Source: an uncultured Clostridia bacterium
GTDB taxonomy: Bacteria; Bacillota; Clostridia; TANB77; CAG-508
Direction: 5' to 3'
Length of the DNA stretch: 64,000 nucleotides
NCBI GenBank assembly: GCA_944387555.1
Contig: CALXFH010000004.1
Coordinates: 12,483-76,482, forward strand
Under the pieces are notes generated by a model. It saw nothing but the letters and a program-made list of their open reading frames with translations, was not told where the DNA came from and made no database searches. Below are positions 1,664 to 46,697 of this stretch, in pieces. How positions within the stretch are numbered: the first letter of the stretch is position 1; each line of letters opens with the position of its first letter. A program made the translations under genes and the position numbers.

Positions 1664-4600
1664 TTATATTTCTATTATTTTATTTAAATACACAGAATAA
1701 ATATATGTATTTTTTACTTGTTTATTATAAGCTTGTTCTAGAGCTTGTTTATATAAATCTAATTGTTTTCTGTATTTGTTAACAAGTTCTTGTTCATTTC
1801 CCGCTTCCACATAATCAGTTTTATAATCAACAAGATTTAAGTTATCATCTTTATCAATGTAATACAAGTCAATAATACCTTGAACAAGTATATTTTCATT
1901 AGTCTCTTCTTTATAAATATCTTTTGCAGGAACATTTATATAAAAAGGCTTTTCTCTTTCTACTTCTTTTGCAGATTTTAATTCTTCCCATATTTTAGAT
2001 TTAGTAAACTCTAATATTTTTTTAGGATTAATTGCTTCTTTTTCTTTAGAAGTAATAATTTTCTTTGCTTCTAACTCTTCTAATAACTCTTTTACTTTTT
2101 CTAAATCGTAATTTACTTTTTCATCTAGCCTTTGCATACAAAGATGTACTAAGGTACCTTTCTTACTTGCTGTAATCTTTTCTTCTTCTCCTGTTTTTAA
2201 GAATTTAGGTTTTGGCAAAGTTATTTCTTTTTCTATTAATACTTTATCACCACTTTCTAACTGTTTTAAAGTTGTAACAGCAGTTTTAGTAGGTATTACT
2301 GTATCTAACATATTTGGATATTTATAATTTAATACATTACTTATTTTGTTTAGTTCTTCCTTATTTGTATCTTTACTTTTATCTTCCAATTCTTTTATAA
2401 CATCTATTTCTCCATTATCGACTTTCTTTAATGTTTTTATAAGTGTTTTTTTCTTATAAGTATTTAAATCTACTTTATCACTACATAAGTTTTTCTCATA
2501 TTGGTAAACAAGTAAAATCCAATCTAAATATTTTTTACATTTCTTAATTAAAATAGGATTAATCTTTCCATTTTCTTTTGGATATCTCTCAATACTTCCA
2601 TCTATTTTCTCTAAATCCTTTTTAAAATCTCTAGTTACTCCTGTTATAAATAACTTCTCTTTCGTTCTTGTTAATGCAACATATAATATTCTCATTTCTT
2701 CTGATAAAGTTTCTAATAAAATCTTATTTTTTATTGCTAGCTTACTTAACGTATCATATTTTACTTGTTTATCATAATCTATGTATTTAGCACCTATTCC
2801 CATATCTTGGTGAAGTAATACATCTTCTTTTAAATCATTTAAGTTAAATTGTTTTCCTGTGCTTGATAAAAATACAACTGGGAATTCTAGTCCTTTACTT
2901 TTATGAATACTCATTATCCTTACAACATCATCATTTTCACCAATAAGTTTAGCAGAACCCATATCTCCACTAGATGTTTTTAGTTTATCTATAAAGTTTA
3001 TAAAATTATATAGTCCTTTAAAGTTAGCTCCTTCATAATCTTTTGCTTTTTGGAATAACATTTTTAAATTTGCTTGTCTTAAATCTCCATTTGGCATAAG
3101 ACCAACGTAATTATAATATCCAGTATCACTATATATTTTCCAAATAAGTTCATCTAATGATAAATATTCTTGTTCTTTTCTCCACTTATCTAAATTATCA
3201 AAAAAGTTTTGTATTTTTTCTTTTAAGCTTTCCTCTACATCTATAATCGCTTTTTGCATACAAGTATAAAAATTATCATAAGCATCTGTTAGGCGTATTT
3301 TAACTAATTCATTGTCTGTAAATTTTCCTATATAAGATCTTAGTACCGCAACTAATGGAATATCTTGCATTGGATTATCTATTATTTTAAGTAGTGACAT
3401 TATTGTTTGTATTTCAATTGAGTCCAAATATTCTTGTGAGCTATCAGAAAATACTGGTATTTCTAAATTTAAAAGTTCTTGTTCATATACAGGTGCAGGA
3501 GTAGATGTAGACCTAAGTAAAATTACTATATCTTTATATTTAATATCTCTATATATTTTCTTATCTTTATTATTTTTATCTTTATCACATACTTGGAATT
3601 TACTATCTACTAATTCCTTTATCTTATTTGCAACAAATCTTGCTTCTAATTCTACATTTTCTATTCTATCTTCTTCCTCTATTTTTTCTCCATCATCTTC
3701 TAATTCTAATACTTTTGTTTCTTCTTCCTCTTCTGATAAATCAATTACATCAATCTCTGTATTTAAGTTTTGCTTTGGATCTGGATAATCTGCTCCTAAA
3801 TTCAAATATTCACCTTCGTTATATTCTATATTTCCTAAACTATCACTCATAATATCTTGGAATATTAAATTTGTAAAATACAAGATATTTTCTCTACTTC
3901 TAAAGTTCTTAAATAATTGTATTTTTAAATCATCATCATTTGTTTTAGTATCTTTATTTTTATAACTTTTATATTTACTAATAAATAATTCTGGCATTGC
4001 TTGACGGAATTTATAAATACTTTGTTTTACATCTCCTACCATAAAAATGTTATTTCCTTTAGATACTGAATTTAATATATATTCTTGTACTAAGTTGCTG
4101 TCTTGATATTCATCAATTGCAATTTCTTCATATTTTTCTTGGTACTTTTTTGCAATATCGGATGGAATAGGTTTTCCATCTTCTTTTATTAATATTTTTA
4201 ATGCAAAGTGTTCTACATCTTGGAAATCTACAATATTTTTTTCTCTCTTTCTTTTTGAAAATTCTTCTCCAAATTCTAATATTATATTTTTTAGTTTTAC
4301 TAATATAGAATACATATCAAAAATATCTTGGTTTGCTGTTTTAGAATCACAAACTAAAATATTATCTAATATTTTCAGATTATCTTTTACTGCATCTCTT
4401 ATTGCTTTTGCTTCATCTTTTTCAATAGTATTTATTCTTTTTCCTCTCCATGGTATAAATTCTATTGCAGAATTTATTTCATAAGCTTTATCCCAATTAT
4501 TTAAATTTTTCTTTAATGCCTCTAACATATCTATATCATGCATTATTATTTTTAAATAACCTTCTAAATCAGGATTAGAATAAAGAAGTTTTTCTGCAGT

Positions 4601-5293
4601 TTTTAGTGAAGAAATATCATCTATTAATTCATCCTCTATTTCTTTTAATAGAACACTACCCCAAGGTGTTTTGCTAAAGTCTTTATCTAAATCTTCTTCT
4701 ATATTAAACATTTCTACTTTTTTAGAAAGCCATTTTTCAGGAAAAGGGTTACTTTGTATATAATTATATATTTTTAATATTAAATCTTTTAATGGAGTAT
4801 CATCTCTGTAACTTGTATATGTATGGATTAATTTTGAAAAATCTTCATCTTCTTCATCATATTTTTTCTCAAAAATATCCTCTATTACTTCCTGTTTTAA
4901 TAATTCTATTTCTGTTGTATCTGCTATCCTAAAATTAGGTGCTAAGTTCTCTAATTCATAAAAATTATTACGCACAACTTCCAAACAAAAAGAGTCTATT
5001 GTACATATACTTGCTTTATTTAATAATGTTATTTGTCTAAGTAACTTTTCATCATTTGGATTTTCATCTAATTTTTTATATATTGCATCTAATACTCTTT
5101 CTCTCATTTCTGCTGCTGCTGCATTTGTAAAAGTTACTACCAATAATCTATCTATATCTATTCCGTCTTCTACAACTTTTTTTATTATTCTTTCTACTAA
5201 AACAGCTGTTTTTCCACTTCCGGCAGCTGCAGCAACTAGAATATTAGAGCCCTTTTCATTTATTGCCTGACTTTGTTCTTTAGTCCATTCCAT
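1664..5293 (-). CDS. addA: ATP-dependent helicase/nuclease subunit A (AddA/RexA type)
   Basis: 1209 aa. UvrD-type Walker A VAAAAGSGKTAVLVERI, helicase motifs (DEYQDSN, VGDVKQSIYKFR) and a C-terminal RecB-family nuclease motif GIIDLYYIDKDDNLNLVDYKTDY. Confidence 0.9.
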   Translation of the reverse strand: MEWTKEQSQAINEKGSNILVAAAAGSGKTAVLVERIIKKVVEDGIDIDRLLVVTFTNAAAAEMRERVLDAIYKKLDENPNDEKLLRQITLLNKASICTIDSFCLEVVRNNFYELENLAPNFRIADTTEIELLKQEVIEDIFEKKYDEEDEDFSKLIHTYTSYRDDTPLKDLILKIYNYIQSNPFPEKWLSKKVEMFNIEEDLDKDFSKTPWGSVLLKEIEDELIDDISSLKTAEKLLYSNPDLEGYLKIIMHDIDMLEALKKNLNNWDKAYEINSAIEFIPWRGKRINTIEKDEAKAIRDAVKDNLKILDNILVCDSKTANQDIFDMYSILVKLKNIILEFGEEFSKRKREKNIVDFQDVEHFALKILIKEDGKPIPSDIAKKYQEKYEEIAIDEYQDSNLVQEYILNSVSKGNNIFMVGDVKQSIYKFRQAMPELFISKYKSYKNKDTKTNDDDLKIQLFKNFRSRENILYFTNLIFQDIMSDSLGNIEYNEGEYLNLGADYPDPKQNLNTEIDVIDLSEEEEETKVLELEDDGEKIEEEDRIENVELEARFVANKIKELVDSKFQVCDKDKNNKDKKIYRDIKYKDIVILLRSTSTPAPVYEQELLNLEIPVFSDSSQEYLDSIEIQTIMSLLKIIDNPMQDIPLVAVLRSYIGKFTDNELVKIRLTDAYDNFYTCMQKAIIDVEESLKEKIQNFFDNLDKWRKEQEYLSLDELIWKIYSDTGYYNYVGLMPNGDLRQANLKMLFQKAKDYEGANFKGLYNFINFIDKLKTSSGDMGSAKLIGENDDVVRIMSIHKSKGLEFPVVFLSSTGKQFNLNDLKEDVLLHQDMGIGAKYIDYDKQVKYDTLSKLAIKNKILLETLSEEMRILYVALTRTKEKLFITGVTRDFKKDLEKIDGSIERYPKENGKINPILIKKCKKYLDWILLVYQYEKNLCSDKVDLNTYKKKTLIKTLKKVDNGEIDVIKELEDKSKDTNKEELNKISNVLNYKYPNMLDTVIPTKTAVTTLKQLESGDKVLIEKEITLPKPKFLKTGEEEKITASKKGTLVHLCMQRLDEKVNYDLEKVKELLEELEAKKIITSKEKEAINPKKILEFTKSKIWEELKSAKEVEREKPFYINVPAKDIYKEETNENILVQGIIDLYYIDKDDNLNLVDYKTDYVEAGNEQELVNKYRKQLDLYKQALEQAYNKQVKNTYIYSVYLNKIIEI

Positions 5294-5336
5294 ATATTTT
5301 CTCCTTTTTTATTTCAGTTTGTAATTTCTTTTTGAT

Positions 5337-5365
5337 ATTCTATCATTTGTAAACTGTTTTTTCAA
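5337..5365 (-). promoter_or_regulatory. Sigma-A type promoter candidate for addA
   Basis: Minus strand reads TTGAAA - 17 nt - TAGAAT with TG at the extended -10 position (aaaTGaTAGAAT), about 40 nt upstream of the addA ATG. Confidence 0.4.
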
Positions 5366-5397
5366 GAAAAAAAGAATATAACAAAAGTCATATTCTT
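5364..5397 (-). terminator. Rho-independent terminator after the DUF4190-like gene
   Basis: 8-bp stem AAGAATAT/ATATTCTT (5372-5379 / 5390-5397). On the minus strand it is followed by TTTTTCTT. Confidence 0.55.
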
Positions 5398-5417
5398 ATT
5401 TATCTTAATTATATTTT

Positions 5418-5726
5418 TTAAAATAATGATGTTAAAGTTGCTACAGATGTTATTATATTTATAATTACCCCAACTATATCAAATGCACCTACACATAAAC
5501 CTACAATTCCCATCCATTTATATTTCTGTTTTTCTTTATCAAATTTAACTATTCCTACTATACCTAACACAACAGCTGCTATTCCTAGTGGAAGACCAAG
5601 TATAAATAATCCTACTAATGATAAAATAAAACTAAGTAAGCCACATACATTTAAGTTTTTTTCTTCGTTTGAACTTGTATTAACATTTTCATTTTGTTCA
5701 ACTTCTTTTACTTCATTTTCGTCCAT
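5418..5726 (-). CDS. Small membrane protein, DUF4190-like
   Basis: 102 aa. Acidic N-terminus followed by two Gly-rich hydrophobic hairpins (GLLSFILSLVGLFILGLPLGIAAVVLGIVGIVKF...WMGIVGLCVGAFDIVGVIINI). Confidence 0.6.
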   Translation of the reverse strand: MDENEVKEVEQNENVNTSSNEEKNLNVCGLLSFILSLVGLFILGLPLGIAAVVLGIVGIVKFDKEKQKYKWMGIVGLCVGAFDIVGVIINIITSVATLTSLF

Positions 5727-10025: not shown

Positions 10026-11204
10026 TTATCTTGTTTCTTCTGCTACATTATTATCAGCTTCTTGAATTAAATATACAAATTCTAATGATTCATCTTCTTT
10101 ATCTGTTTTTTCTACCCCTAAAGTTTCTTTATCTATTAAATATGCTTGCTCTCCTTCAGTAGAAATATCTTGTCCCCAACTCATTACAGCTTGCACTTTA
10201 CCATTTCCTAAATCAATGAAATTCATAAAACTATTTTCTTGCTCTTTCATTATTGTTTTTGTATTTCCATTTTCCATAACTTTTAATACATAATTTGGAT
10301 ATGGTTCTTCGCTTACCGCTGCACAATAATATAATTTACCATCTATATATGCACCAGACATGTAAAGGTCATCTATTTTTATTTTTTCTCCAGTATCTAC
10401 TTTATATATATAATAGTTACTTCTTCTATCATTCCCCTTACCTTCTTCTTTAGCATATAATATAGCTTCGCTTGTACTTCCAGGGCAAAGGCTTACATTA
10501 TAATAATATGTTCCATTTCCATAAGGTGCTCTTGACTCACTATCAGCACTATCTATTGTTTTTATTTCTCCAGTTTTTATATCATATTCTTTTAAATAAT
10601 TTTGTGGCGACCTTTCTGTGTAATATATTTTTCCATTTTTCTTATTTACATACATTCCAAATATTTCTTCTGCATCCACTACATTTTCAGTTTCTCCTGT
10701 TTCTAAATCATAAGAAACTAAATTTTCTTGGTCTGCATCAAAATATATTTTTCCATCATATACTCCCATATTTTTATAATGATTAGGATTTTCTAAATTA
10801 TAAGAAAAGATTTTGTTCAATTCATAATTTCCATTTCCTTTAGTTAAATCAATTTCATAGAAATCTTTTTCTTTTTGTAAATATATTTTTCCACCAGAAT
10901 AATCTAATGTTTCATATTCTGTTGTTCCGAAATTTGTTATATCAAATATTGTTCCATCTTCTTTTAATGCAACAATTTTATATTTACCATCTTCTATTTG
11001 CTGTGCAAATCCACATACATCTTCTAATTCATCATTTAATTTTACTGTTTCTCCTTCTTGTGAAGTATTTTCTTCATTTTGAGGTTCTTGTGAAGTTTGG
11101 CTATTATTACTTCCACAACCTGTTAAAGCAAATACCATAACAAATAATAATAATATAATTCCTATTCTTAAAATGATATTTTTCAATCTTTTTTCCCCTT
11201 TCAT
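10026..11204 (-). CDS. Lipoprotein with a predicted beta-propeller (DUF5050-like); paralogue of 14960-16582
   Basis: 392 aa. Lipobox ALTGCGS and repeated GKIYY/GKLYY blades. A clear paralogous stretch, LDYSGGKIYLQKEKDFYEIDLTKGNGNYELNKIF, matches LDYSFGKLYLQKGTEFFSIDLTKGDGNYQLESIY in the 540-aa protein. Confidence 0.65.
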   Translation of the reverse strand: MKGEKRLKNIILRIGIILLLFVMVFALTGCGSNNSQTSQEPQNEENTSQEGETVKLNDELEDVCGFAQQIEDGKYKIVALKEDGTIFDITNFGTTEYETLDYSGGKIYLQKEKDFYEIDLTKGNGNYELNKIFSYNLENPNHYKNMGVYDGKIYFDADQENLVSYDLETGETENVVDAEEIFGMYVNKKNGKIYYTERSPQNYLKEYDIKTGEIKTIDSADSESRAPYGNGTYYYNVSLCPGSTSEAILYAKEEGKGNDRRSNYYIYKVDTGEKIKIDDLYMSGAYIDGKLYYCAAVSEEPYPNYVLKVMENGNTKTIMKEQENSFMNFIDLGNGKVQAVMSWGQDISTEGEQAYLIDKETLGVEKTDKEDESLEFVYLIQEADNNVAEETR

Positions 11205-14959: not shown

Positions 14960-16582
14960 TTAATTATCTTTCTTTTCTATTTTTATATTTACTGTTAATT
15001 CTTCTTTAGTATTTGTAGTTGTTTGCTTTGTTGGTAAAAGCAATACTATTTTTCCTTCTTCTTCACTTATTGTAAGTTCATTTGCTATTGTATCTATTGG
15101 ATTTTTATCTGTTCTTTGGTTATTTAATAATTTTACTTTATTTCCTTCTATTTCATAATTTCCTGCTTGATTATACTCAAATGACATTCCCATACTATAA
15201 GTTCCATCTTCATTAAATATAACACTATTATTATCATTTAATTGTGAACCTAATACAAATGAAATTCCAAATTCTAAACTATCTGTAGTTGTTGCTCTCC
15301 ATTCTCCTACTAAATCTTCTTTTTTTATTGCTCCTTCTTCATTTCCTTCTGTTTTATTTTCCGTATGCGTATCTGATCCTTCTACAATATAAGACATATT
15401 TCTATACGTTACATTTGTTTTATTTCTTTCAAATGTATCTTTATTTATTAAATAAGTATCTACATATGAATCATAAGCATCATAATTATTCCCATCTATT
15501 TCTGCTTGTATATCTCCATTTGCTAAAACATATATTTCGTCTATATTGCTATCTGGAGTAGGTTCAATTATTTCTTTTGTCTCACCATTTTCATATACTT
15601 TTAAAGAGCTTTCAGTAGAAGATGGTCCTAAATCCTTATGTGTTGCATAATATAATTTTCCATTATCATAAAAGCTTATACTTCCTTCTCCATATTCATC
15701 CATGTCTTCATCTATTTTTGTTTCTTCCCCAGTTGTAACATTATATTCATATCCTGTTGTTTTACTTGTTATTTCATATCCACTTGCTTCATCTACGCCA
15801 TAATTTCCTTGTACTCTTTCATAATATATAAAACCATTATCTGTCACAGGTCCCATATAAAATCTTTTTCCTGCTTCTGTATTATTATCTGTGCCTTTTT
15901 TATATTCTGCTTTTTTTAATTCTGTTTTTTCACCAGTTGCTATATTATATGTTCCTAAAACTCCTCCCCAATCTTGTCTAAAAATTTTAACTGGTGATTT
16001 TGTATAATAAATATATCCTCTTTTTTTATCAACTACAAATCTTCCATCTATATCTCCATTATATTCAATCTCTTTTGTTTGTTTTGTTTCTAAATCATAT
16101 CCTTCTATTAATTGATTTCCTCTATTATAATAAAGTATTCCATCATATACATACATGATTTTTGGTGTCCAGTCTGGCTCTGATGATACTTTATATATAC
16201 TTTCTAGTTGATAGTTTCCATCACCTTTAGTTAAATCTATAGAAAAGAACTCTGTTCCTTTTTGTAAATATAATTTTCCAAAGCTATAATCTAAGGCTTC
16301 ATATTCTACTTGCTTTCCCTCTTCTAAGTTATGCTCTACTAAAGTTACTTCACTTCCGTCTTTTTTTAAGGCTACTGTACTTGCTTTTCCTTCTTCTGTT
16401 CTATTTGCAAAAGCATATACTCCTTCTAATTCTGGATTCAACTCTACACTTAACACATTTTCCTCTTTATTTTGTTCTTCTACAGTTGTGTTATTTTCAT
16501 TATTATTTCCACATCCTACTAAAGTAAATACCATAATTGTAAACATTATGACTAAAAATATTATTTTCGCTTTTTTCACCAT
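14960..16582 (-). CDS. Lipoprotein with a DUF5050-like propeller and a C-terminal lipocalin-like module; paralogue of 10026-11204
   Basis: 540 aa. Lipobox TLVGCGN. Paralogy is described under 10026-11204. C-terminal module: LVGEWRATTTD...FNEDGTYSM...GNYEIEGNKVKLL. Confidence 0.65.
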   Translation of the reverse strand: MVKKAKIIFLVIMFTIMVFTLVGCGNNNENNTTVEEQNKEENVLSVELNPELEGVYAFANRTEEGKASTVALKKDGSEVTLVEHNLEEGKQVEYEALDYSFGKLYLQKGTEFFSIDLTKGDGNYQLESIYKVSSEPDWTPKIMYVYDGILYYNRGNQLIEGYDLETKQTKEIEYNGDIDGRFVVDKKRGYIYYTKSPVKIFRQDWGGVLGTYNIATGEKTELKKAEYKKGTDNNTEAGKRFYMGPVTDNGFIYYERVQGNYGVDEASGYEITSKTTGYEYNVTTGEETKIDEDMDEYGEGSISFYDNGKLYYATHKDLGPSSTESSLKVYENGETKEIIEPTPDSNIDEIYVLANGDIQAEIDGNNYDAYDSYVDTYLINKDTFERNKTNVTYRNMSYIVEGSDTHTENKTEGNEEGAIKKEDLVGEWRATTTDSLEFGISFVLGSQLNDNNSVIFNEDGTYSMGMSFEYNQAGNYEIEGNKVKLLNNQRTDKNPIDTIANELTISEEEGKIVLLLPTKQTTTNTKEELTVNIKIEKKDN

Positions 16583-40041: not shown

Positions 40042-40081
40042 AGCAAAAAGATATTTTAATTTGTTCATATATCTTTTTGCT
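40042..40081 (-). terminator. Strong Rho-independent terminator ending the cohesin/dockerin operon
   Basis: 13-bp stem AGCAAAAAGATAT/ATATCTTTTTGCT, followed on the minus strand by TTTAATTTTTT. Confidence 0.75.
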
Positions 40082-40095
40082 CTATCTTTATAAAT

Positions 40096-41409
40096 TTACT
40101 TTTGCTTATTTTTCTTCTTTTCAAGCAATATAGAACTACTTGCAAGAATTAGGACTATAGCAATTAGTACAAAAAATGCTACTATTTGATTTCTTTCTTC
40201 TTTTCCTTCTTGTTCATTCTTTTCTATCTGTTCTTGATTTTCTTTATTCTGTTCTTGCTCATTACTTGTTTTTTGTATTTCATAAATTTGCTTTAATTTT
40301 TCTTGGTTACTTTTCTGTTCTTCTTGGTATTTAGCTTCTTCTTCACTATTTCTTTTATAAACATTTATATTGTATTCCTTTTTTGTATAACCATTTCTTG
40401 CAGTAACTGTAATTTTAATTTCATTGTTACCTTCTTTAAGTGTATCATCTCTTTTTATTTCTACTGTTGCTTCTTCATCTTCTGGAATTGCGAGTAAATT
40501 TATTTGTTCTGTGTTGTTTCCTACTTCAACATTATAATTAGTAACAGTATTATCAAAAGCAGGGTAAAGAAGATAGTTTTCAATTGCAAGAGTTTCTAAA
40601 TTAGTATTTGCTGCCTCTAAATCATTAGTTTTAGTAACATTAATTAGATATGTGCTATTACTTGTTTTATCAGGTGATGTTACTTGTACTTTTATTGTAT
40701 TTAAACCATTTTGTAAGTTAGTATTTCCTGTAATTTCTACTTGTGCATCATTATTTTCTGCTGTTGCTAAAACTTCTATATCTTTAACATCATTTTTAAC
40801 TGTTAAATAATAATCAAAAATATCATTTTGAAACTCTGGTACCATACCTTCTATGCTAAGTCTAAGGTTTTGAAGTTTTGAATTACTTTCATTTATATCT
40901 TGTCCTACTTCTTCTCTTGCTTGTTTTTCTAAAGTTGTTTCTTCTTTTCCAATCTGTATTTGTTTTTCTTTAAAACTCGTTTCTACTTTTTGACCTTTTT
41001 CAGTATAAAATTCTCCATTTATATTAAAAGTAGCTATTCCATTTTCTTTAGCTTTAAACTTAAATGTTTCTATGCTTCCGCTTCTTGGACTTGTTCCACC
41101 TTGCTTGTCATACCAAACATAAATAATTCTATTTCCATCAACATTTATATTGTCTTCTTTATTTTCTTTTACAAATTCAAATTTATCATTATCAAAATAA
41201 AGATATAAAGTAAAAGCTGCAGTTTTAAAATTATCTATATTAACACTAATTTCTATTTCTTCACCTACATCGATAACATCTTTATTACTTTCTAAATAGA
41301 CATTTCCTGTAGTGTTTGCATAAACCTTGCAAGCTGAAATTATATTTATTAGAAAAAGAAATAAAATTAATAATAATAAAATTTTTTTGTTTATATTTTT
41401 AACCTCCAT
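40096..41409 (-). CDS. Secreted cohesin-like protein with two cadherin-like beta-sandwich modules and a C-terminal TM anchor
   Basis: 437 aa. Signal peptide (...SACKVYA/NT). Cohesin-like module (VGEEIEISVNIDNFKTAAFTLYLYFDNDKFEFV...IIYVWYDKQGGTSPRSGSIETFKFKAKENG). Two modules of the type L.NL.L....L.P.F......Y...V........V.A.......V.I.G...L..G.N.I.I.VT. A Q/E/K-rich coil, then IVAFFVLIAIVLILASSSILL followed by KKKNKQK. Confidence 0.65.
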   Translation of the reverse strand: MEVKNINKKILLLLILFLFLINIISACKVYANTTGNVYLESNKDVIDVGEEIEISVNIDNFKTAAFTLYLYFDNDKFEFVKENKEDNINVDGNRIIYVWYDKQGGTSPRSGSIETFKFKAKENGIATFNINGEFYTEKGQKVETSFKEKQIQIGKEETTLEKQAREEVGQDINESNSKLQNLRLSIEGMVPEFQNDIFDYYLTVKNDVKDIEVLATAENNDAQVEITGNTNLQNGLNTIKVQVTSPDKTSNSTYLINVTKTNDLEAANTNLETLAIENYLLYPAFDNTVTNYNVEVGNNTEQINLLAIPEDEEATVEIKRDDTLKEGNNEIKITVTARNGYTKKEYNINVYKRNSEEEAKYQEEQKSNQEKLKQIYEIQKTSNEQEQNKENQEQIEKNEQEGKEERNQIVAFFVLIAIVLILASSSILLEKKKNKQK

Positions 41410-41430
41410 GTCTCTCTCCTTTATAAGATG

Positions 41431-41470
41431 TGTCCCAGATTACGCAAAAATGCGCAAAAGGAAACGTCCC
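41431..41470. repeat. Second copy (half-element) of the GGGAC palindromic repeat family
   Basis: The reverse complement GGGACGTTTCCTTTTGCGCATTTTTGCGTAATCTGGGACA matches 30032-30071 at 36 of 40 positions. It fills the 60-nt gap between two cistrons of the cohesin operon. Confidence 0.8.
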
Positions 41471-43716
41471 TATTGTTCTATTTCTTGAAGCCCTAATATA
41501 TGTCTTTGAATTAATAGTAAATCAACAGAACTTGGTTTTGATGATGTTTTTCTTACATTACTTGCTTTCATAAATATACTATCTAACTTTTGTAACTCTA
41601 GTATATGTCTTTGTAATACTAATAAATCAACACTATTTATCTTTCCATCTCCATTACTGTCTCCATACACTATAATTGTATATTCTCTTAAAAGAATTCC
41701 ATTTTCTTTTACTAAGATTTTACTTCCAGTTCCTACAATATCATTATCTCCTAAAGTTTCACCTTTATAGTTTACAAATTCTAATTCTAAATCTGTTGTA
41801 ATTAAGTCTTTTAAATCAGATACTTTGTTTTTATCATAATTTATTCCTGAAATTTCTAAACTATCTACATTTAAAGAACTATCAAAGTGTATTTCTGAAT
41901 CTTCCATTTTTCTTACTACTGTTACTTTACATTCTTTTTTGATTTCTTCATTTTCTTTTGATTTAACTGTAATTATTGCTGTTCCTTCTTGCTTTGCTTC
42001 TAAATTTCCGTGTTCATCTAATGTTACTGTATCTTGCTTATTACTCTCAAAAATAATACCTTTTTCATTTGCATCATCTGGCTCTACATAGGCATTTATT
42101 TTAAATGTATCCCCTACTTGCATATAGACATCATCATTATCTATTAATATGTCTGTTACTTTACTATAAACTTCCACTTCTAAAGTAGCTTGTACATCAT
42201 TCTCTTCTGCTTTTACTGTTATAGTTGCTTTTCCACTTGTTATTCCTCTTAAGTTCCCATCACTATCTACTGTTACGATATTTGGATTACTAGATGAATA
42301 TATTACTTTATGGTCTTTTGCTTCTTCTGGCGAAATTTTTATATTTAATTTTTTAGTTTCTCCTTTTTGTATAACATTATTATCTAAACTCATTTCTATA
42401 TTTTCTATCTGTACTGGTGGGACTTCTGTTACATAGTTTTGTGAAATATAACCGATAATTCCATTAGAAAGTCTTACCATATCCCATCTATCACCAGTTC
42501 CGACGCCCTTTTTTATTCTTGTCATCTGGTTTCCTTCTTGCACCATTGTAATTACTTCATAAGAAGTACTAGGTCCTGTTCTTACATTTACATTAGTAGC
42601 ATTACAATATACTTTTGTATTGTCATCTGTAAAATTACTTGGCTCAATACTTGGACTTTGTGTTGGAATATCAGGCATATTATTATATATTGGAATAATA
42701 AAATTCATTGGTATATCTAACAAATTACTTTTTTTATAACCTGTATATATAGATTTTGACTCACTATAAGGAGCAAGTACATTTGTCATGTACTGGTGCC
42801 AAAATAAACTACTTCCTGTTACATCAAACTTTTGTAAATATACTGTATCTTGTCCTTGATTTATATAACTATCTCCTATAAAAATAGCTCCTCCTGTTAT
42901 TGCTCTTTCTTTAGTGTTCCATGGAATTAAAAATTTAGTTTTAGTTGCTTCACTAGCGCCTTTTCCATCTTTTGCATACTGAAGTCCATTTTTAATTGCT
43001 CCCATGGGCTCAGAAGAACTTGTTGCTCCTATATTATAAAAATTATATAAACCTTCAAAACCACTTACTGTTCCGCTAATTGAAGCATGTGATAAAAAAG
43101 GTCCTACTTCTTGTTTTATTCTAGATGCTAAATGATATGGACTTACCTTTGAAGTTTGTCCTCCTCTTAATATTAAGTCCGAATATTTTTCAGACATATT
43201 AATAGTTTGTCCTGTACTTGTTACATAAGATACCTTTGTATTATAAAATTCTGTACCATAAAGTATTTTTTCAACTCCATCTAAATTATTTGTTTGCTCA
43301 CTAAAAGATAGCCCCTCAAATTGGAATATTCTAACTTCATTTAGAAAATTTCTTGGGTCCATACAAAACTCTACTGCTTGTCTTGAACTATCCACCCAAC
43401 CTGCGTCTACTTCAACATTATATTCTCCAGGTTTTGTATTTTTCCATCTATCAGAATAGTTTTTAGGAACTAAGTTTTTACCAAATTCATTTTCATTATC
43501 AATAACGTAATTCCAATCTAAATTTGTATATAAAGCCGTAAACTTCCAATTCGGATGTTTTGTAGCTAATTCTTCTAAATACGGTTTATAACTTTCTGGA
43601 AAATCTTCTATACCATTAGATCTACCCTCTCCATTTACAACAGCAAAAATTATGCATCCTAAAAAAAGAATTATAAAAAGTACTATATATGTTTTTTTAT
43701 CTTTTAAAATGCTCAT
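41470..43716 (-). CDS. Dockerin-tagged putative peptidoglycan hydrolase (GH73-like glucosaminidase - SH3b - 2x Big_2 - dockerin)
   Basis: 748 aa. N-terminal signal/anchor. LytB/Atl-like region (HLASRIKQEVG ... GQDTVYLQKFDV ... WHQYMTNVLAPY). SH3b (VNVRTGPSTSYEVITMVQEGNQMT...WDMVRLSNGIIGYISQNYV). Two Ig-like Big_2 modules (SSSNPNIVTVDSDGNLRGITSGKATITV; ...VTLDEHGNLEAKQEGTAIITV). C-terminal dockerin YGDSNGDGKINSVDLLVLQRHIL plus a degenerate second repeat. Confidence 0.7.
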   Translation of the reverse strand: MSILKDKKTYIVLFIILFLGCIIFAVVNGEGRSNGIEDFPESYKPYLEELATKHPNWKFTALYTNLDWNYVIDNENEFGKNLVPKNYSDRWKNTKPGEYNVEVDAGWVDSSRQAVEFCMDPRNFLNEVRIFQFEGLSFSEQTNNLDGVEKILYGTEFYNTKVSYVTSTGQTINMSEKYSDLILRGGQTSKVSPYHLASRIKQEVGPFLSHASISGTVSGFEGLYNFYNIGATSSSEPMGAIKNGLQYAKDGKGASEATKTKFLIPWNTKERAITGGAIFIGDSYINQGQDTVYLQKFDVTGSSLFWHQYMTNVLAPYSESKSIYTGYKKSNLLDIPMNFIIPIYNNMPDIPTQSPSIEPSNFTDDNTKVYCNATNVNVRTGPSTSYEVITMVQEGNQMTRIKKGVGTGDRWDMVRLSNGIIGYISQNYVTEVPPVQIENIEMSLDNNVIQKGETKKLNIKISPEEAKDHKVIYSSSNPNIVTVDSDGNLRGITSGKATITVKAEENDVQATLEVEVYSKVTDILIDNDDVYMQVGDTFKINAYVEPDDANEKGIIFESNKQDTVTLDEHGNLEAKQEGTAIITVKSKENEEIKKECKVTVVRKMEDSEIHFDSSLNVDSLEISGINYDKNKVSDLKDLITTDLELEFVNYKGETLGDNDIVGTGSKILVKENGILLREYTIIVYGDSNGDGKINSVDLLVLQRHILELQKLDSIFMKASNVRKTSSKPSSVDLLLIQRHILGLQEIEQ

Positions 43717-43717
43717 C

Positions 43718-44329
43718 CTAATCTTTCTCCTTTGCTTTTACTATAATTCTTTTACTAGAATCATTTGTACAAGTAATTAGAGTTACCTCTTTTCCTCCAC
43801 CTGTTTCTTGTGATAAACAACTTACATCATCTGGTAAAACCATATATATGTCATAAATTTCATATTCTACTCTTCCTACATTATTGTCTATAATAAAAAG
43901 ATTATCTCCTACAATTAAATCTTTTAAATTATGGAACATGTTTTTATTTTTGAAATTATGTCCTGCTATACAAAAATTTCCAGAAGTATTGGGCTTTGCT
44001 CCCCAAAACTTTACAGCTGAAATATTTAAAGACGAATTTGAATATGTTTTTAATACATAAGTTTCTAAATTTATTTTAGGTATTTCTAATTTTGCTAACA
44101 CATCATACCCTTTATATTCTAAAGCAACTTCTTCTTTTGGATATTCTTTTTCTATTTCTTTAGTTTCTTCATCAGTAGTAGTTATATTAGTACTTACATT
44201 TTGTACTTTATAGTTTTCCTCCTCTATCTTTTTTTCATTATAATTTTCAATTCCAAGCCAAGTTAAAATACTAAAAATAATTGTAACTAAAAAGATATTA
44301 ACAATTCTTTTTTTACTTTTCGTTTTCAT
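43718..44329 (-). CDS. Sortase (cysteine transpeptidase)
   Basis: I prefer the start MKTKSKKRIVNIF at 44329 (GGAAGGA RBS). N-terminal TM, His motif FCIAGHN, catalytic TLITC, Arg in KRIIVKA. Confidence 0.85.
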   Translation of the reverse strand: MKTKSKKRIVNIFLVTIIFSILTWLGIENYNEKKIEEENYKVQNVSTNITTTDEETKEIEKEYPKEEVALEYKGYDVLAKLEIPKINLETYVLKTYSNSSLNISAVKFWGAKPNTSGNFCIAGHNFKNKNMFHNLKDLIVGDNLFIIDNNVGRVEYEIYDIYMVLPDDVSCLSQETGGGKEVTLITCTNDSSKRIIVKAKEKD

Positions 44330-44426
44330 TTGCTTATCCTTCCTAAGGCTCTTTTTATGTAAGTAAATGAGAAAAAATCTCATTTACTTTTCTTTTTATT
44401 TATTTTTTCTTCTTTATTTTTATTTT

Positions 44427-45500
44427 TTATTCTTTTATTTTCTTTTTGTTATAATAAATAACAGTTCCAGTGAGTATTGCTAGTATTGTAGAAATTGGAA
44501 GATATATATTTGTACCTGTTTTTGGAAGTTTAGTTGGCATTTGGTTTTCTGTTACATTTTCTACAACATTTTCCTCTACTTCTACTGGTGGAGTTATTTC
44601 TTCTGGATTATTTTCTGTTGTTCCATTTTCTGTTCCACCTGTTGTTGGAGGTGTTGGTGCTTGTTCTGCTACTGTAAAGTCAAATGTTTTTTGGGCAATT
44701 ACTGAGTCAGAATTTTCTCTATCTATTAATTTTAATGTAATTTGATAATCTCCTGCTTCACTAAATATTCCTCTAACATTTAACACTTGTGATACATCTT
44801 TTCCACCAATTGCATATCCTTGTTCTTCTCCCCAACCACTTTCTATTATGTCATGGTCTAATTGAGATTCATCTGTTCCTATTAACTGTACATCTCCTGC
44901 TCCTGTGCTTTCAGCTACAAGTCTTGCTTTGTTATAGTATTTTCCCATAGGTGAAGAATAAGAAAGTTTCATTTCATTTTCTTCTCCTTTTACAAGTGTT
45001 CCATTTACTGATTCTAAATTTAATGTATAATCTATATATTCTGGCTCAACTGTTACATTTTTAGTAATTGGAGTTGTTATATCATCATAAGTTACAGAGG
45101 CGTCTGAATTTGCTAATCCTTCTGCTGTTATATTAAATTCTGTTGGATTTGAAGTTGTTAAATCTGCTTTTGCTCTAAATGTTACGCTCATATTTGTACG
45201 TGGGTTTGTTCCTCCAGTACTATCATAGAAAACAACTCTTACCTTAGTTCCAGTATCATTTGCTGTTCCACCTTCGCTTGATACATACTCAAATATGCTA
45301 TTATCATAAGCAACATCAAATGTATATGAACCTAAAGCCTGACCAAATTCTATATTTACTTTTACTTCTTCACCTGGTCTTATTAAATCCTTAGAAGTTT
45401 CTACATTTATAGTATCTAATGAATCCGCATATACATTCCCTGTAAAAACAGTAACACTTATTATCATTAAAATTGCAATTAAACTAACTATTTTTTTCAT
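44427..45500 (-). CDS. LPKTG-anchored surface protein with an N-terminal cohesin-like module
   Basis: 357 aa. Signal peptide (...GNVYA/DS). Cohesin-like module (PGEEVKVNIEFGQALGSYTFDVAYDNSIFEYV...VRVVFYDSTGGTNPRTNMSVTFRAKA). P/T/E-rich stalk. LPKTG followed by a hydrophobic segment and KKKIKE. Confidence 0.7.
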   Translation of the reverse strand: MKKIVSLIAILMIISVTVFTGNVYADSLDTINVETSKDLIRPGEEVKVNIEFGQALGSYTFDVAYDNSIFEYVSSEGGTANDTGTKVRVVFYDSTGGTNPRTNMSVTFRAKADLTTSNPTEFNITAEGLANSDASVTYDDITTPITKNVTVEPEYIDYTLNLESVNGTLVKGEENEMKLSYSSPMGKYYNKARLVAESTGAGDVQLIGTDESQLDHDIIESGWGEEQGYAIGGKDVSQVLNVRGIFSEAGDYQITLKLIDRENSDSVIAQKTFDFTVAEQAPTPPTTGGTENGTTENNPEEITPPVEVEENVVENVTENQMPTKLPKTGTNIYLPISTILAILTGTVIYYNKKKIKE

Positions 45501-45604: not shown

Positions 45605-45638
45605 TAAAAAAACGTAATAGAAATTTTTTCTATTACGC
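45605..45638 (-). terminator. Rho-independent terminator after dgkA
   Basis: 10-bp stem CGTAATAGAA/TTCTATTACG, followed on the minus strand by TTTTTTTATG. Confidence 0.7.
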
Positions 45639-45673: not shown

Positions 45674-46045
45674 TTATTTTATAAAATTTAAAATTTTTGG
45701 AATAAATATAATTAAGCCAACAATTACACTTCCAATTGCTAAAACAAGTACTGCTCCAGCAGCTACGTCTTTTGCAATTTTTGCTTTTTCATTTTTTTCC
45801 ATAGTTATCATATCGACAACTGTTTCTATTACCGTATTAAACAATTCTCCTGATATTACCAATGCAAACATAATAACTAAAATTATCCAATCTAATGAAC
45901 TTATTTTAAGTACTATACCTGCAATTATTACAAGTATCATTATTAATATATGTATTTTCATATTTTGCTCTGTTTTAAATGATGTAGCAATTCCGGTAAA
46001 AGCATATTTAAAACTATTTATTAATTTTTTCGTTTTTGTTTTCAT
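45674..46045 (-). CDS. dgkA: Diacylglycerol/undecaprenol kinase DgkA family
   Basis: 123 aa, three TM segments. Motifs FKYAFTGI...EQNMKIH and ELFNTVIETVVD. Confidence 0.85.
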   Translation of the reverse strand: MKTKTKKLINSFKYAFTGIATSFKTEQNMKIHILIMILVIIAGIVLKISSLDWIILVIMFALVISGELFNTVIETVVDMITMEKNEKAKIAKDVAAGAVLVLAIGSVIVGLIIFIPKILNFIK

Positions 46046-46697
46046 TTCTATCTTCTCTTTCTATTATATATTTTTTAACTAAGCTTGTATATATTATTAA
46101 GTAACATACTGATATTAAAAATCCTGCAATTACATCACTTGTATAATGTACTCCTAAATATATTCTAGTTACTCCAATTAATATTATTAAAATACTTAGG
46201 AAAATAATTAATACTATTTTTAACTTTTTGTTTTTAAAATATTTATATATTAAATATATTAAAAATCCATAAAATGCCATTGATATCATTGAATGTCCAG
46301 ATGGGAAACTATATCCTGTTTCTGAAATCAATTTAAATTCATTTGGTCTTGGTCTTTGTACTATGTTTTTTAATAATATATTTAATATTGTTGCAATTAC
46401 TAAATTTAATAAAATACAAAAACTGATTTTTTTATTCTTTATTAATAATAACAATATTATTGTTAAAGTACAAATTACAATTGCTCCTCCTAAGTTTGTA
46501 ATTACTATTGCAATTGGTGTCACAGATGGATCTATTAGGCTAGAAACTATACCATATCCCATTATATCTAATTTCATTATTTCTTTTTCAAATACATCTT
46601 CTGCAATTGCAATTACTATTATCAATAATACAAATAATATTATCCACTTTATATTTTTTATACTAAAATCTTTTACTTTTGTTATCTTTTCTCTCAT
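46014..46697 (-). CDS. PAP2-family phosphatase (undecaprenyl-diphosphatase/BcrC-like)
   Basis: 227 aa. The three PAP2 motifs KNIVQRPRP, SFPSGHS and TRIYLGVHYTSDV. Overlaps dgkA by 32 nt. Confidence 0.8.
   Translation of the reverse strand: MREKITKVKDFSIKNIKWIILFVLLIIVIAIAEDVFEKEIMKLDIMGYGIVSSLIDPSVTPIAIVITNLGGAIVICTLTIILLLLIKNKKISFCILLNLVIATILNILLKNIVQRPRPNEFKLISETGYSFPSGHSMISMAFYGFLIYLIYKYFKNKKLKIVLIIFLSILIILIGVTRIYLGVHYTSDVIAGFLISVCYLIIYTSLVKKYIIEREDRNENKNEKINK

Follow-up and report, generated by a model that had tools for sequence, protein, structure and literature searches.

A four-gene cohesin, dockerin and sortase cassette as a probable surface tether for a peptidoglycan hydrolase in uncultured gut Clostridia

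How Gram-positive bacteria restrain their own autolysins is a long-standing question, to which wall-binding repeats, teichoic-acid exclusion and FtsEX, SpdC or similar membrane partners are known answers. An operon in a 64-kb stretch of DNA from an uncultured Clostridia bacterium (contig CALXFH010000004.1 of assembly GCA_944387555.1, positions 12,483 to 76,482; hereafter the window) raises the question of whether the binding of cohesins to dockerins could be another. It consists of four minus-strand genes, g1 to g4 in transcription order, which encode a wall-anchored cohesin protein, a sortase, a predicted peptidoglycan hydrolase ending in a dockerin, and a membrane-anchored cohesin protein; the window holds two cohesins and exactly one dockerin. 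We consider it probable that these genes form a dedicated surface-tethering module for the one hydrolase, acting on the producer's own envelope. A dedicated cohesin-dockerin pair had been proposed in an earlier note made from the letters of the window, and comparative genomics backs it strongly, with the cassette complete in 72 of 80 related species and a cohesin gene next to the hydrolase gene in 13 of 14 distant lineages with a dockerin. Every module identity given in that note held up, and no observation that it had listed as refuting was made. The features on which the argument turns are the following (positions in the window; aa, amino acids).

44427 to 45500, minus strand: g1, wall-anchored cohesin protein of 357 aa (Pfam, AlphaFold2, Foldseek, orthologs)
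45045 to 45419, minus strand: cohesin module of g1 (nine predicted beta-strands; profile matches to NagJ, CipC and CipA; hhalign to g4)
44514 to 44528, minus strand: LPKTG sortase motif of g1 (read from the sequence; conserved in orthologs)
43718 to 44329, minus strand: g2, sortase of 203 aa with an N-terminal transmembrane (TM) anchor (Pfam Sortase, ribosome-binding site)
41470 to 43716, minus strand: g3, predicted secreted peptidoglycan hydrolase of 748 aa with a C-terminal dockerin (Pfam, NCBIfam, phmmer)
42682 to 43611, minus strand: catalytic module of g3, aa ~36-345, related to glycoside hydrolase family 73 (GH73; phmmer to PDB chains, NCBIfam SagB)
42430 to 42594, minus strand: SH3b (SH3_3) wall-binding module of g3 (Pfam, 37.8 bits against a cut-off of 27)
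41917 to 42402, minus strand: two Big_2 Ig-like spacer modules of g3 (Pfam, 76.9 bits, two stretches)
41668 to 41910, minus strand: X-like beta module of g3, aa ~603-683, directly before the dockerin (conserved alignment block)
41473 to 41667, minus strand: type-I dockerin of g3, aa 684-748 (Pfam Dockerin_1, profile search)
40096 to 41409, minus strand: g4, membrane-anchored cohesin protein of 437 aa (Pfam, phmmer, hhalign)

The C-terminal tail of g3 scores as a dockerin above the curated cut-off (Pfam Dockerin_1, PF00404, 31.7 bits against 22.9), and its profile matches the dockerin of endo-1,4-beta-xylanase Y (2ccl, 7.7e-7). The first repeat carries a canonical loop, DSNGDGKINSVD (D-S-N-G-D-G-K-I-N-S-V-D), and the second a degenerate loop one residue longer, NVRKTSSKPSSVD (N-V-R-K-T-S-S-K-P-S-S-V-D). 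The loss of the calcium-binding ladder from the second repeat, as read earlier from the window, stands for the window species but not for the family as a whole, in which N-x-N-x-N-G is partly kept: the consensus loop there, itself atypical, is N-I-N-K-N-G-K-K-P-T-S-V-D, in which N1, N3, N5 and G6 are retained, and in distant relatives the second loops are fully canonical. The repeat-2 sequence of the window points to a second Ca2+ site that is weakened or lost. It had also been taken to suggest a single binding mode, and here we come to a different view. Both dockerin helices read SVDLL(V/L)(L/I)QRHIL, nearly invariant over the 80 species, so that the putative recognition residues are still duplicated; with symmetric helices and the family loop partly retained, a single binding mode is therefore unsupported by the sequence.

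The corresponding cohesins lie at the N-termini of g1 and g4. In g1, a signal peptide (aa 1-25) is followed by the cohesin (aa ~28-152) and an Ig/FN3-like domain (aa ~155-280). Pfam Cohesin (PF00963) matches 57 of 59 g1 orthologs at E <= 1e-3 (best 8.2e-10), and the ortholog profile finds the cohesin of Clostridium perfringens NagJ first, followed by the CipC and CipA cohesins. In the AlphaFold2 model (mean predicted local distance difference test, pLDDT, 77.5) the N-terminal module is predicted to fold as a nine-stranded cohesin-type beta-sandwich (aa 30-150), with a second sandwich at aa 155-280, both above pLDDT 90, and beyond aa 280 a P/T/E stalk that is disordered, followed by a helix at the C-terminus. 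The top Foldseek match of this model in the PDB is 2w1n, the NagJ cohesin-FN3 double module (E = 4.9e-10), and the cohesins 3l8q and 5nrm are also listed. In g4, a signal peptide and a cohesin (aa ~33-160) precede two cadherin-like modules (aa ~180-352; Pfam Cadherin-like, 84.8 bits), a charged E/K/Q stalk (aa 353-408), a TM segment (aa 409-429) and a short basic tail. Its N-terminal module matches the NagJ cohesin 2jh2 (phmmer, E = 2e-4; profile search, E = 1e-3), and alignment to the g1 cohesin gives a probability of 98.5% (hhalign, E = 1.9e-15, 148 columns), with reciprocal matches of 1e-11 to 1e-12 between hidden Markov models (HMMs) of the two. The cohesins of g1 and g4 are thus paralogs. 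With these matches the cohesin call for g1, and for g4 that of a paralogous cohesin-like module with two cadherin-like modules and a TM anchor, hold. The residues common to both cohesins (E44, E45, D66, N81, D93, G96, G97, F108, A110, K111 and E127) were considered as a binding surface, a reading that we rejected, for they lie mostly in loops and predicted strand 7 and, at the level of sequence, identify no interface.

Conservation of the gene order had been named as a check, and was followed in a scan in which each GTDB species was represented by a single genome. At least 287 of these genomes hold a relative of g3, and the cassette counts refer to the best 80. All 80 belong to uncultured gut Clostridia sampled in human, mouse, chicken, goat and rabbit; among them are Ca. 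Scatovivens faecipullorum, Ca. Neoclostridium roslinense and a circular metagenome-assembled genome of 1.8 Mb (L070). The order g1-g2-g3-g4 is intact in 72 of the 80, contig ends explain six of the eight exceptions, and the other two loci (L056 and L058), which have room upstream of g3 but no match to g1 or g2, appear to carry g3-g4 alone. The flanking genes vary between genomes while the order stays, and the four genes are therefore inherited together. Across the 80 species g3 is the most conserved member (58-94% identity, against 34-89% for g1, g2 and g4). Many gut metagenome contigs hold identical copies of the window locus.

The hydrolase had been described as the only enzymatic cargo of the system, which is correct for this operon and for the window; in related genomes, however, other dockerin proteins are placed beside the cassette. 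At locus L085 a cohesin-dockerin adaptor of 300 aa (3965-4867) and a cohesin of 227 aa with an IPQTG anchor (10222-10905) lie nearby, and at L014:10633-14466 a 1277-aa protein with transglutaminase-like, Ig and dockerin modules adjoins the cassette. The dockerins of L085 and L014 have canonical double loops and a helix type unlike that of g3. Because of this difference in helix type, the lineage looks to hold more than one cohesin-dockerin specificity group, with g3, g1 and g4 as one dedicated group.

How old is this arrangement? The whole catalytic module of g3 (~320 aa) is self-contained, with 2727 representatives at 50% clustering, 1502 of which score below 1e-30. Among 61 diverse representatives SH3_3 is found in 41, Pfam Dockerin_1 in 22 and Cadherin-like in 18, and SLH or GW wall-binding modules in a few; of 150 representatives, 37 end in a dockerin according to our own dockerin HMM, with second loops that are canonical in some and degenerate like that of the window in others. 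At four distant loci (L090, L092, L093 and L094) the gene after the hydrolase-dockerin gene encodes a cohesin-bearing protein. Pfam Cohesin matches the L090 partner, our own cohesin HMMs give 1e-4 to 1e-10 over these partners, and the full-length ones (L090, L093) also have cadherin-like modules and a C-terminal TM segment. The sortase gene is absent from all four loci. A second, independent sample consisted of 80 metagenome loci seeded on a distant member, which fall into 17 clusters at 70% identity, 15 of them with a dockerin. Of the dockerin clusters, 14 allow the downstream gene to be read, and in 13 of them a cohesin gene lies immediately downstream; a sortase gene occurs in none of the 80 loci. 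Because a cohesin follows the hydrolase-dockerin in distant lineages and the sortase is absent there, the old core appears to consist of a hydrolase that usually carries a dockerin and of a cohesin/cadherin partner anchored in the membrane; the wall cohesin, arisen by duplication, and its dedicated sortase would be a lineage-specific addition. The four genes had been called a minimal system, a description that does not hold for their origin, since the two-gene pair seems to be the widespread core to which g1 and g2 were added in the lineage of the window. At L093 there are tandem paralogous hydrolases that share the catalytic module (292-2820 and 2926-5490), of which only the second has a dockerin and a cohesin partner after it.

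Does g3 encode a wall hydrolase? Glucosaminidase homology had been claimed for its N-terminal region, and the catalytic module does find AtlA-gl (6fxo, 1.3e-7), SagB (6fxp/6u0o, 6e-7) and AtlE (4pi7) by phmmer, and SagB in NCBIfam (6.6e-10). These Staphylococcus aureus enzymes are its best relatives, and the catalytic Glu and the blocks YNF(Y/F)G(I/V)GA and HQY(A/M)T(D/N) align. E203, within RIKQEVGP, is aligned with the catalytic Glu of LLETG (SagB) or LVETG (AtlE) and is invariant across the g3 family and the distant representatives. Given that the equivalent Glu acts as general acid in GH73 enzymes (PMC7170848), E203 is the putative general acid of g3. The HQYMTN block, with YMTN at aa 309-312 (Y309, N312), is aligned with HQYATD. 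The module differs from SagB, AtlA-gl and AtlE in its length of ~320 aa and long conserved N-terminal part, as well as in reading YMTN for YA(S/T)D and in the result of one Pfam search, given below. Overall, g3 is predicted to be a catalytically active, GH73-related endo-N-acetylglucosaminidase. The SH3b and two Big_2 modules listed above bear out what had been read from the letters, and the Ig-like modules of g3 make a stalk of ~300 residues. Our own HMM of the X-like module finds a similar segment before the dockerin of another protein of the related genome L085. A lipoprotein reading of the g3 N-terminus (LFLGC) was rejected: the Cys is unconserved, and a signal-peptidase I site of the form V-x-A|S is found in the majority of orthologs.

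If displayed by the wall-anchored cohesin, such a hydrolase could also face outwards, as a weapon that lyses neighbours or as a scavenger that harvests free peptidoglycan fragments for a gut organism with a small genome. SH3b and Ig-like modules are typical of endolysins and bacteriolysins too, part of the catalytic region of g3 is similar to phrog_759 (E = 3e-7), a family of phage tail-associated cell-wall hydrolases, the enzyme might reach past the wall on the long stalks of g1 and g3, and the 1.8-Mb circular genome of L070 suggests a reduced lifestyle. The cassette, however, is without an immunity or regulator gene; g3 is its most conserved member and near-universal in the lineage, as for housekeeping; the ancestral partner is membrane-anchored, which would place the enzyme inside or under the wall; and the base composition equals that of the surrounding housekeeping genes. 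We therefore regard an outward-facing role as unlikely, and a tether that serves the producer's own wall as the better reading.

From genomic co-occurrence we infer that the g3 dockerin binds the cohesins of g1 and g4. Several observations count against this proposal or against an active enzyme, and have to be set beside those above. In the window itself Pfam Cohesin gives g1 22.0 bits, slightly below the cut-off of 24.1, and has no direct match in g4, with just 3 of 56 g4 orthologs matched. The Ca2+ ladder of D/N at positions 1, 3 and 5 and D at 12 is missing from the second dockerin repeat of the window. Among the distant lineages, the sole exception of the 14 (L133-type) has a cadherin-like partner whose N-terminal domain is weakly similar to the g4 cohesin (hhalign, 72%), the L091 partner has no detectable cohesin, and at L095 and L132 hydrolases without a dockerin still have a TM-anchored cohesin-like gene downstream. 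As for catalysis, the GH73 motif YA(S/T)D keeps its Tyr and Thr but has Asp replaced by Asn throughout the g3 family, and the equivalent change in AtlA-gl, D217N, reduced activity (PMC7170848). Pfam Glucosaminidase (PF01832) matches neither g3 nor any of the 61 distant representatives, so that the GH73 homology rests on the phmmer matches to PDB chains (1e-7) and the NCBIfam SagB match (6.6e-10). An AlphaFold2 model of g3 aa 25-360, built on a 37-sequence alignment, reached a mean pLDDT of only 45.7 and was discarded.

The marginal cohesin scores in the window, the exceptions lacking a hydrolase dockerin or a clear partner cohesin, and the cadherin-like modules common among surface proteins of these loci would also fit a scenario without any cohesin-dockerin pairing, in which g1 and g4 are adhesins whose cohesin-like and cadherin-like beta-sandwiches take host or dietary ligands, and the hydrolase is co-expressed just to open the wall locally for the insertion of these surface proteins and of the sortase product. 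This appears quite unlikely to us. The hydrolase dockerin and a neighbouring cohesin co-occur in the 13 of 14 independent lineages as well as in the 80-species family, and the dockerin helices are under strong constraint. Furthermore, the other dockerin types differ in helix and adjoin other cohesins, which points to specific pairs, and both Foldseek and the profiles group the modules with the true dockerin-binding NagJ cohesins. We thus retain the pairing; since the dockerin-less hydrolases of L095 and L132 keep a cohesin partner, that partner may also contact the enzyme by means other than the dockerin. At L095:5001-9711 the C-terminus of the hydrolase is a long acidic tail rich in D, G and T, and the partner has a cadherin-like module, and L132:3898-9063 holds a dockerin-less homologous hydrolase with a cohesin-like partner.

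The two cohesin proteins are anchored differently. The C-terminal part of g1 consists of a P/T/E stalk (aa 281-321), LPKTG (aa 325-329), a TM helix and a KKKIKE tail, a complete sorting signal in which 24 mostly hydrophobic residues separate LPKTG from KKKIKE. Its reading as a sortase substrate is confirmed by Pfam Gram_pos_anchor (21.7 bits against a cut-off of 20) and by conservation: LPKTG or LPQTG is present in 70 of 72 g1 orthologs with a readable C-terminus, and LPKAG in one, with L325, P326 and G329 invariant and K327 and T328 nearly so. LPXTG occurs in none of 56 g4 orthologs, 49 of which have a C-terminal hydrophobic stretch. The sortase call for g2 is equally secure, with 85.9 bits on Pfam Sortase (PF04203; cut-off 26.6) and a triad of His in IAGHN, Cys in TLITC and Arg near the C-terminus that aligns with 4d70. 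g2 is predicted to attach g1 covalently to peptidoglycan at LPKTG, and probably to be specific for it. Directly upstream of g1, four species (L027:4021-4788, L042, L045 and L048) have an additional sortase paralog, which has ~255 aa and 41-45% identity to g2 and is lacking in the window; at L012:11739-13164 there is a second sortase together with a small LPXTG cohesin-like protein.

The class of g2 bears on a further alternative. It passes TIGR01076 and stays under every NCBIfam class cut-off (class D 38.8 against 165, SrtD 50.4 against 140, class C 67.3 against 160). Its best PDB matches are 4d70, a sortase family protein (E = 3.6e-15) that we take to be C. perfringens SrtD, and 2kw8 (E = 3.5e-13), presumably a class D sortase of Bacillus anthracis; the search output names no class for either. 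On the presumed identity of these nearest structures g2 may be called a class-D-like sortase, below the class-specific thresholds. In Bacillus, sporulation involves class D sortases, and one distant locus (L091) adjoins spoIIE, so that the sortase and hydrolase might remodel the wall specifically during sporulation or germination and not in vegetative division. In contrast, the cassette has no linked sporulation gene in the window or at most loci, the ancestral two-gene pair has no sortase, and g2 is below the NCBIfam class D cut-off. We hold this scenario to be very improbable.

The tether that we favour would work as follows. The hydrolase would be exported by its signal peptide, bind the wall by SH3b and carry its dockerin on the Ig-like stalk, and the dockerin would plug into either of two single-cohesin receptors. 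One of these, the cohesin of g4, would be raised from its membrane anchor on the charged stalk and two cadherin-like modules; the other would stand on the Ig-like module and P/T/E stalk of g1, which g2 would link to peptidoglycan at LPKTG. The enzyme could thus be held membrane-proximal (g4) or wall-bound (g1), and the tether would keep a potentially lethal glucosaminidase cell-associated and restrict its reach. Its physiological role is most plausibly septum splitting or wall turnover, by analogy with C. perfringens Acp, a GH73 cell-separation autolysin with ten SH3b domains (PMC8470621). Acp is the best functional analogy for g3, but it is retained by its SH3b repeats alone, without dockerin, cohesin or sortase.

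Components of such a system have been described elsewhere. ScaE of Ruminococcus flavefaciens, Sca2 of R. bromii and cSca5 of Limousia are sortase-anchored single-cohesin scaffoldins which, like g1, have an N-terminal cohesin and a C-terminal LPXTG, and which are covalently wall-anchored and receive dockerin partners (PMC4611034, PMC12997984). Those scaffoldins receive a whole cellulosome, amylosome or mucinolysome, whereas the sole operon partner of g1 is a peptidoglycan hydrolase, and unlike them g1 has its own sortase alongside and a membrane-anchored cohesin paralog. The locus also differs from cellulosome, amylosome and mucinolysome in having one cohesin per scaffold, one dockerin and no polysaccharide-degrading enzyme in the window. 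The closest solved cohesins to those of g1 and g4, in both sequence and fold, are in the C. perfringens NagJ/GH84C complexes (2jh2, 2w1n, 2ozn), which are likewise non-cellulosomal; at ~15-20% identity, these join secreted glycoside-hydrolase toxins for host glycans and are no autolysin tether. SagB, which NCBIfam annotates as part of a 'peptidoglycan release complex', offers a conceptual parallel to g4, for there a membrane partner positions a GH73 enzyme; that partner is polytopic, whereas positioning by g4 would be of the cohesin-dockerin kind.

The nearest precedent is a single sentence on Ruminococcus bicirculans, according to which dockerin and cohesin are each present only once in this species, 'associated with a GH73 enzyme' (Ze et al. 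2015, citing Wegmann et al. 2014; PMC4611034). As described in that sentence, it resembles the present case in that a GH73 enzyme of a non-cellulolytic gut Firmicute is tied to a dockerin and a cohesin; the remark itself describes no operon, sortase, dual anchoring, conservation or function. GH73 is also listed among the families unique to R. albus in a comparative table (PMC4081043). The literature that we searched contained no characterisation of a dockerin-tagged autolysin. Sortase-anchored single-cohesin scaffoldins and non-cellulosomal cohesin-dockerin systems (the C. perfringens toxin complexes, amylosomes and mucinolysomes) are already known (PMC4611034, PMC12997984). What is new is that a dedicated operon brings its own sortase, that paralogous cohesins provide both a membrane and a wall anchor, and that the hydrolase-cohesin gene pair is broadly distributed.

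If the proposal is true, a cohesin-dockerin tether would be a new, modular answer to the control of autolysins, built from small and soluble domains, and the role of these modules would widen from the degradation of nutrient polymers to housekeeping of the cell envelope. Its reach could be considerable, given the 2727 representatives of the catalytic domain, with a dockerin on about a third of those sampled, while the four-gene form belongs to a large, common group of uncultured gut Clostridia. The pair could also serve as an orthogonal surface-display tag in such organisms.

The hydrolase gene of some relatives has a further peculiarity. In five related loci one extra C stands at the same site, between the codons for Pro96 and Gly97 (CCN C GGN); these loci belong to two divergent sub-families, L011:7276-7302, L012:7279-7305 and L019:6294-6320 in one and L069 and L071 in the other. 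After the insertion the original frame reads Pro and then CGG, a codon used once among 16,419 in the long open reading frames (ORFs) of the window, with a stop a few codons on, and the +1 frame is open through the remainder of the gene. Both halves of the gene are under purifying selection (ratio of nonsynonymous to synonymous substitution rates, dN/dS, ~0.1-0.2), and truncated products of 630-646 aa (P0006-P0016) are common in the protein collection. The site looks like a candidate for programmed +1 ribosomal frameshifting. The equivalent position in the window (~43426-43431) is intact, with no extra C. Taken jointly, the elements discussed so far would describe a widespread and unrecognised cohesin-dockerin autolysin tether in Clostridia, with an ancestral membrane receptor, the wall cohesin as a second dock and, in some species, a dose set by +1 frameshifting; we offer this combined picture tentatively, as a possibility that we would not yet back in full.

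With regard to the layout of the locus, all four minus-strand ORFs exist in the ORF list of the window at the coordinates given earlier, and the structures around them, all on the minus strand, are the following.

45612 to 45638, minus strand: intrinsic terminator of the upstream, DAGK-like gene (terminator scan; fold of -14.7 kcal/mol, z = -5, followed by a U-tract)
44358 to 44389, minus strand: 12-bp hairpin in the g1-g2 gap (fold of -14.4 kcal/mol, z = -5.3; no U-tract)
40042 to 40081, minus strand: intrinsic terminator at the operon end (fold of -15.7 kcal/mol, z = -5.0, followed by UUUUAAUUUUUU)

The two terminators bracket the operon, the upstream one marking its 5' boundary. The downstream one had been noticed before and is indeed a stable hairpin with a U-tract; the consensus terminator scanner gave no call for it. 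Its stem is A/U-rich and its loop 14 nt long. Although the mechanical ORF of g2 reaches 44383 (221 aa), that start was rejected because it lies inside the hairpin and is without a ribosome-binding site. Translation almost certainly begins with the ATG at 44329, which has the ribosome-binding site GGAAGGA upstream and is chosen by gene callers on identical metagenome contigs. With this start the g1-g2 gap is 97 nt and not 43 nt as read previously, while the gaps of 1 nt (g2-g3) and 60 nt (g3-g4) are as reported. The hairpin in the g1-g2 gap is possibly an attenuator or an mRNA stabiliser of the g1 transcript, and may leave the scaffold in excess over sortase and enzyme.

The G+C content is ~27% across the window and base composition is uniform, the cassette being equal to the surrounding housekeeping genes; the other genes encode tRNA synthetases, ABC exporters, a class A penicillin-binding protein, copper homeostasis proteins and an AddA-like helicase. 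None of the neighbouring genes or the ten largest other ORFs proved to encode a glycoside hydrolase, which agrees, over that range, with the earlier statement that polysaccharide-degrading enzymes are not nearby. Origin from a prophage or mobile island was rejected given the uniform base composition, the housekeeping neighbours and the lack of PHROG matches for g1 and g4. An Rfam scan of the window returned zero matches, and one 540-aa minus-strand ORF (14960-16582) has no Pfam match at E <= 1e-5. Genes for a PAP2 phosphatase and a DAGK-family kinase (45674-46697, minus strand) lie directly upstream of the operon and are unlinked to the cassette in other genomes; PAP2 and DAGK-type enzymes can serve undecaprenyl lipid-carrier recycling. 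The minus strand carries all 29 window ORFs of at least 250 aa, and the GC skew is negative throughout; the whole window lies on one replichore with a strong gene-strand bias.

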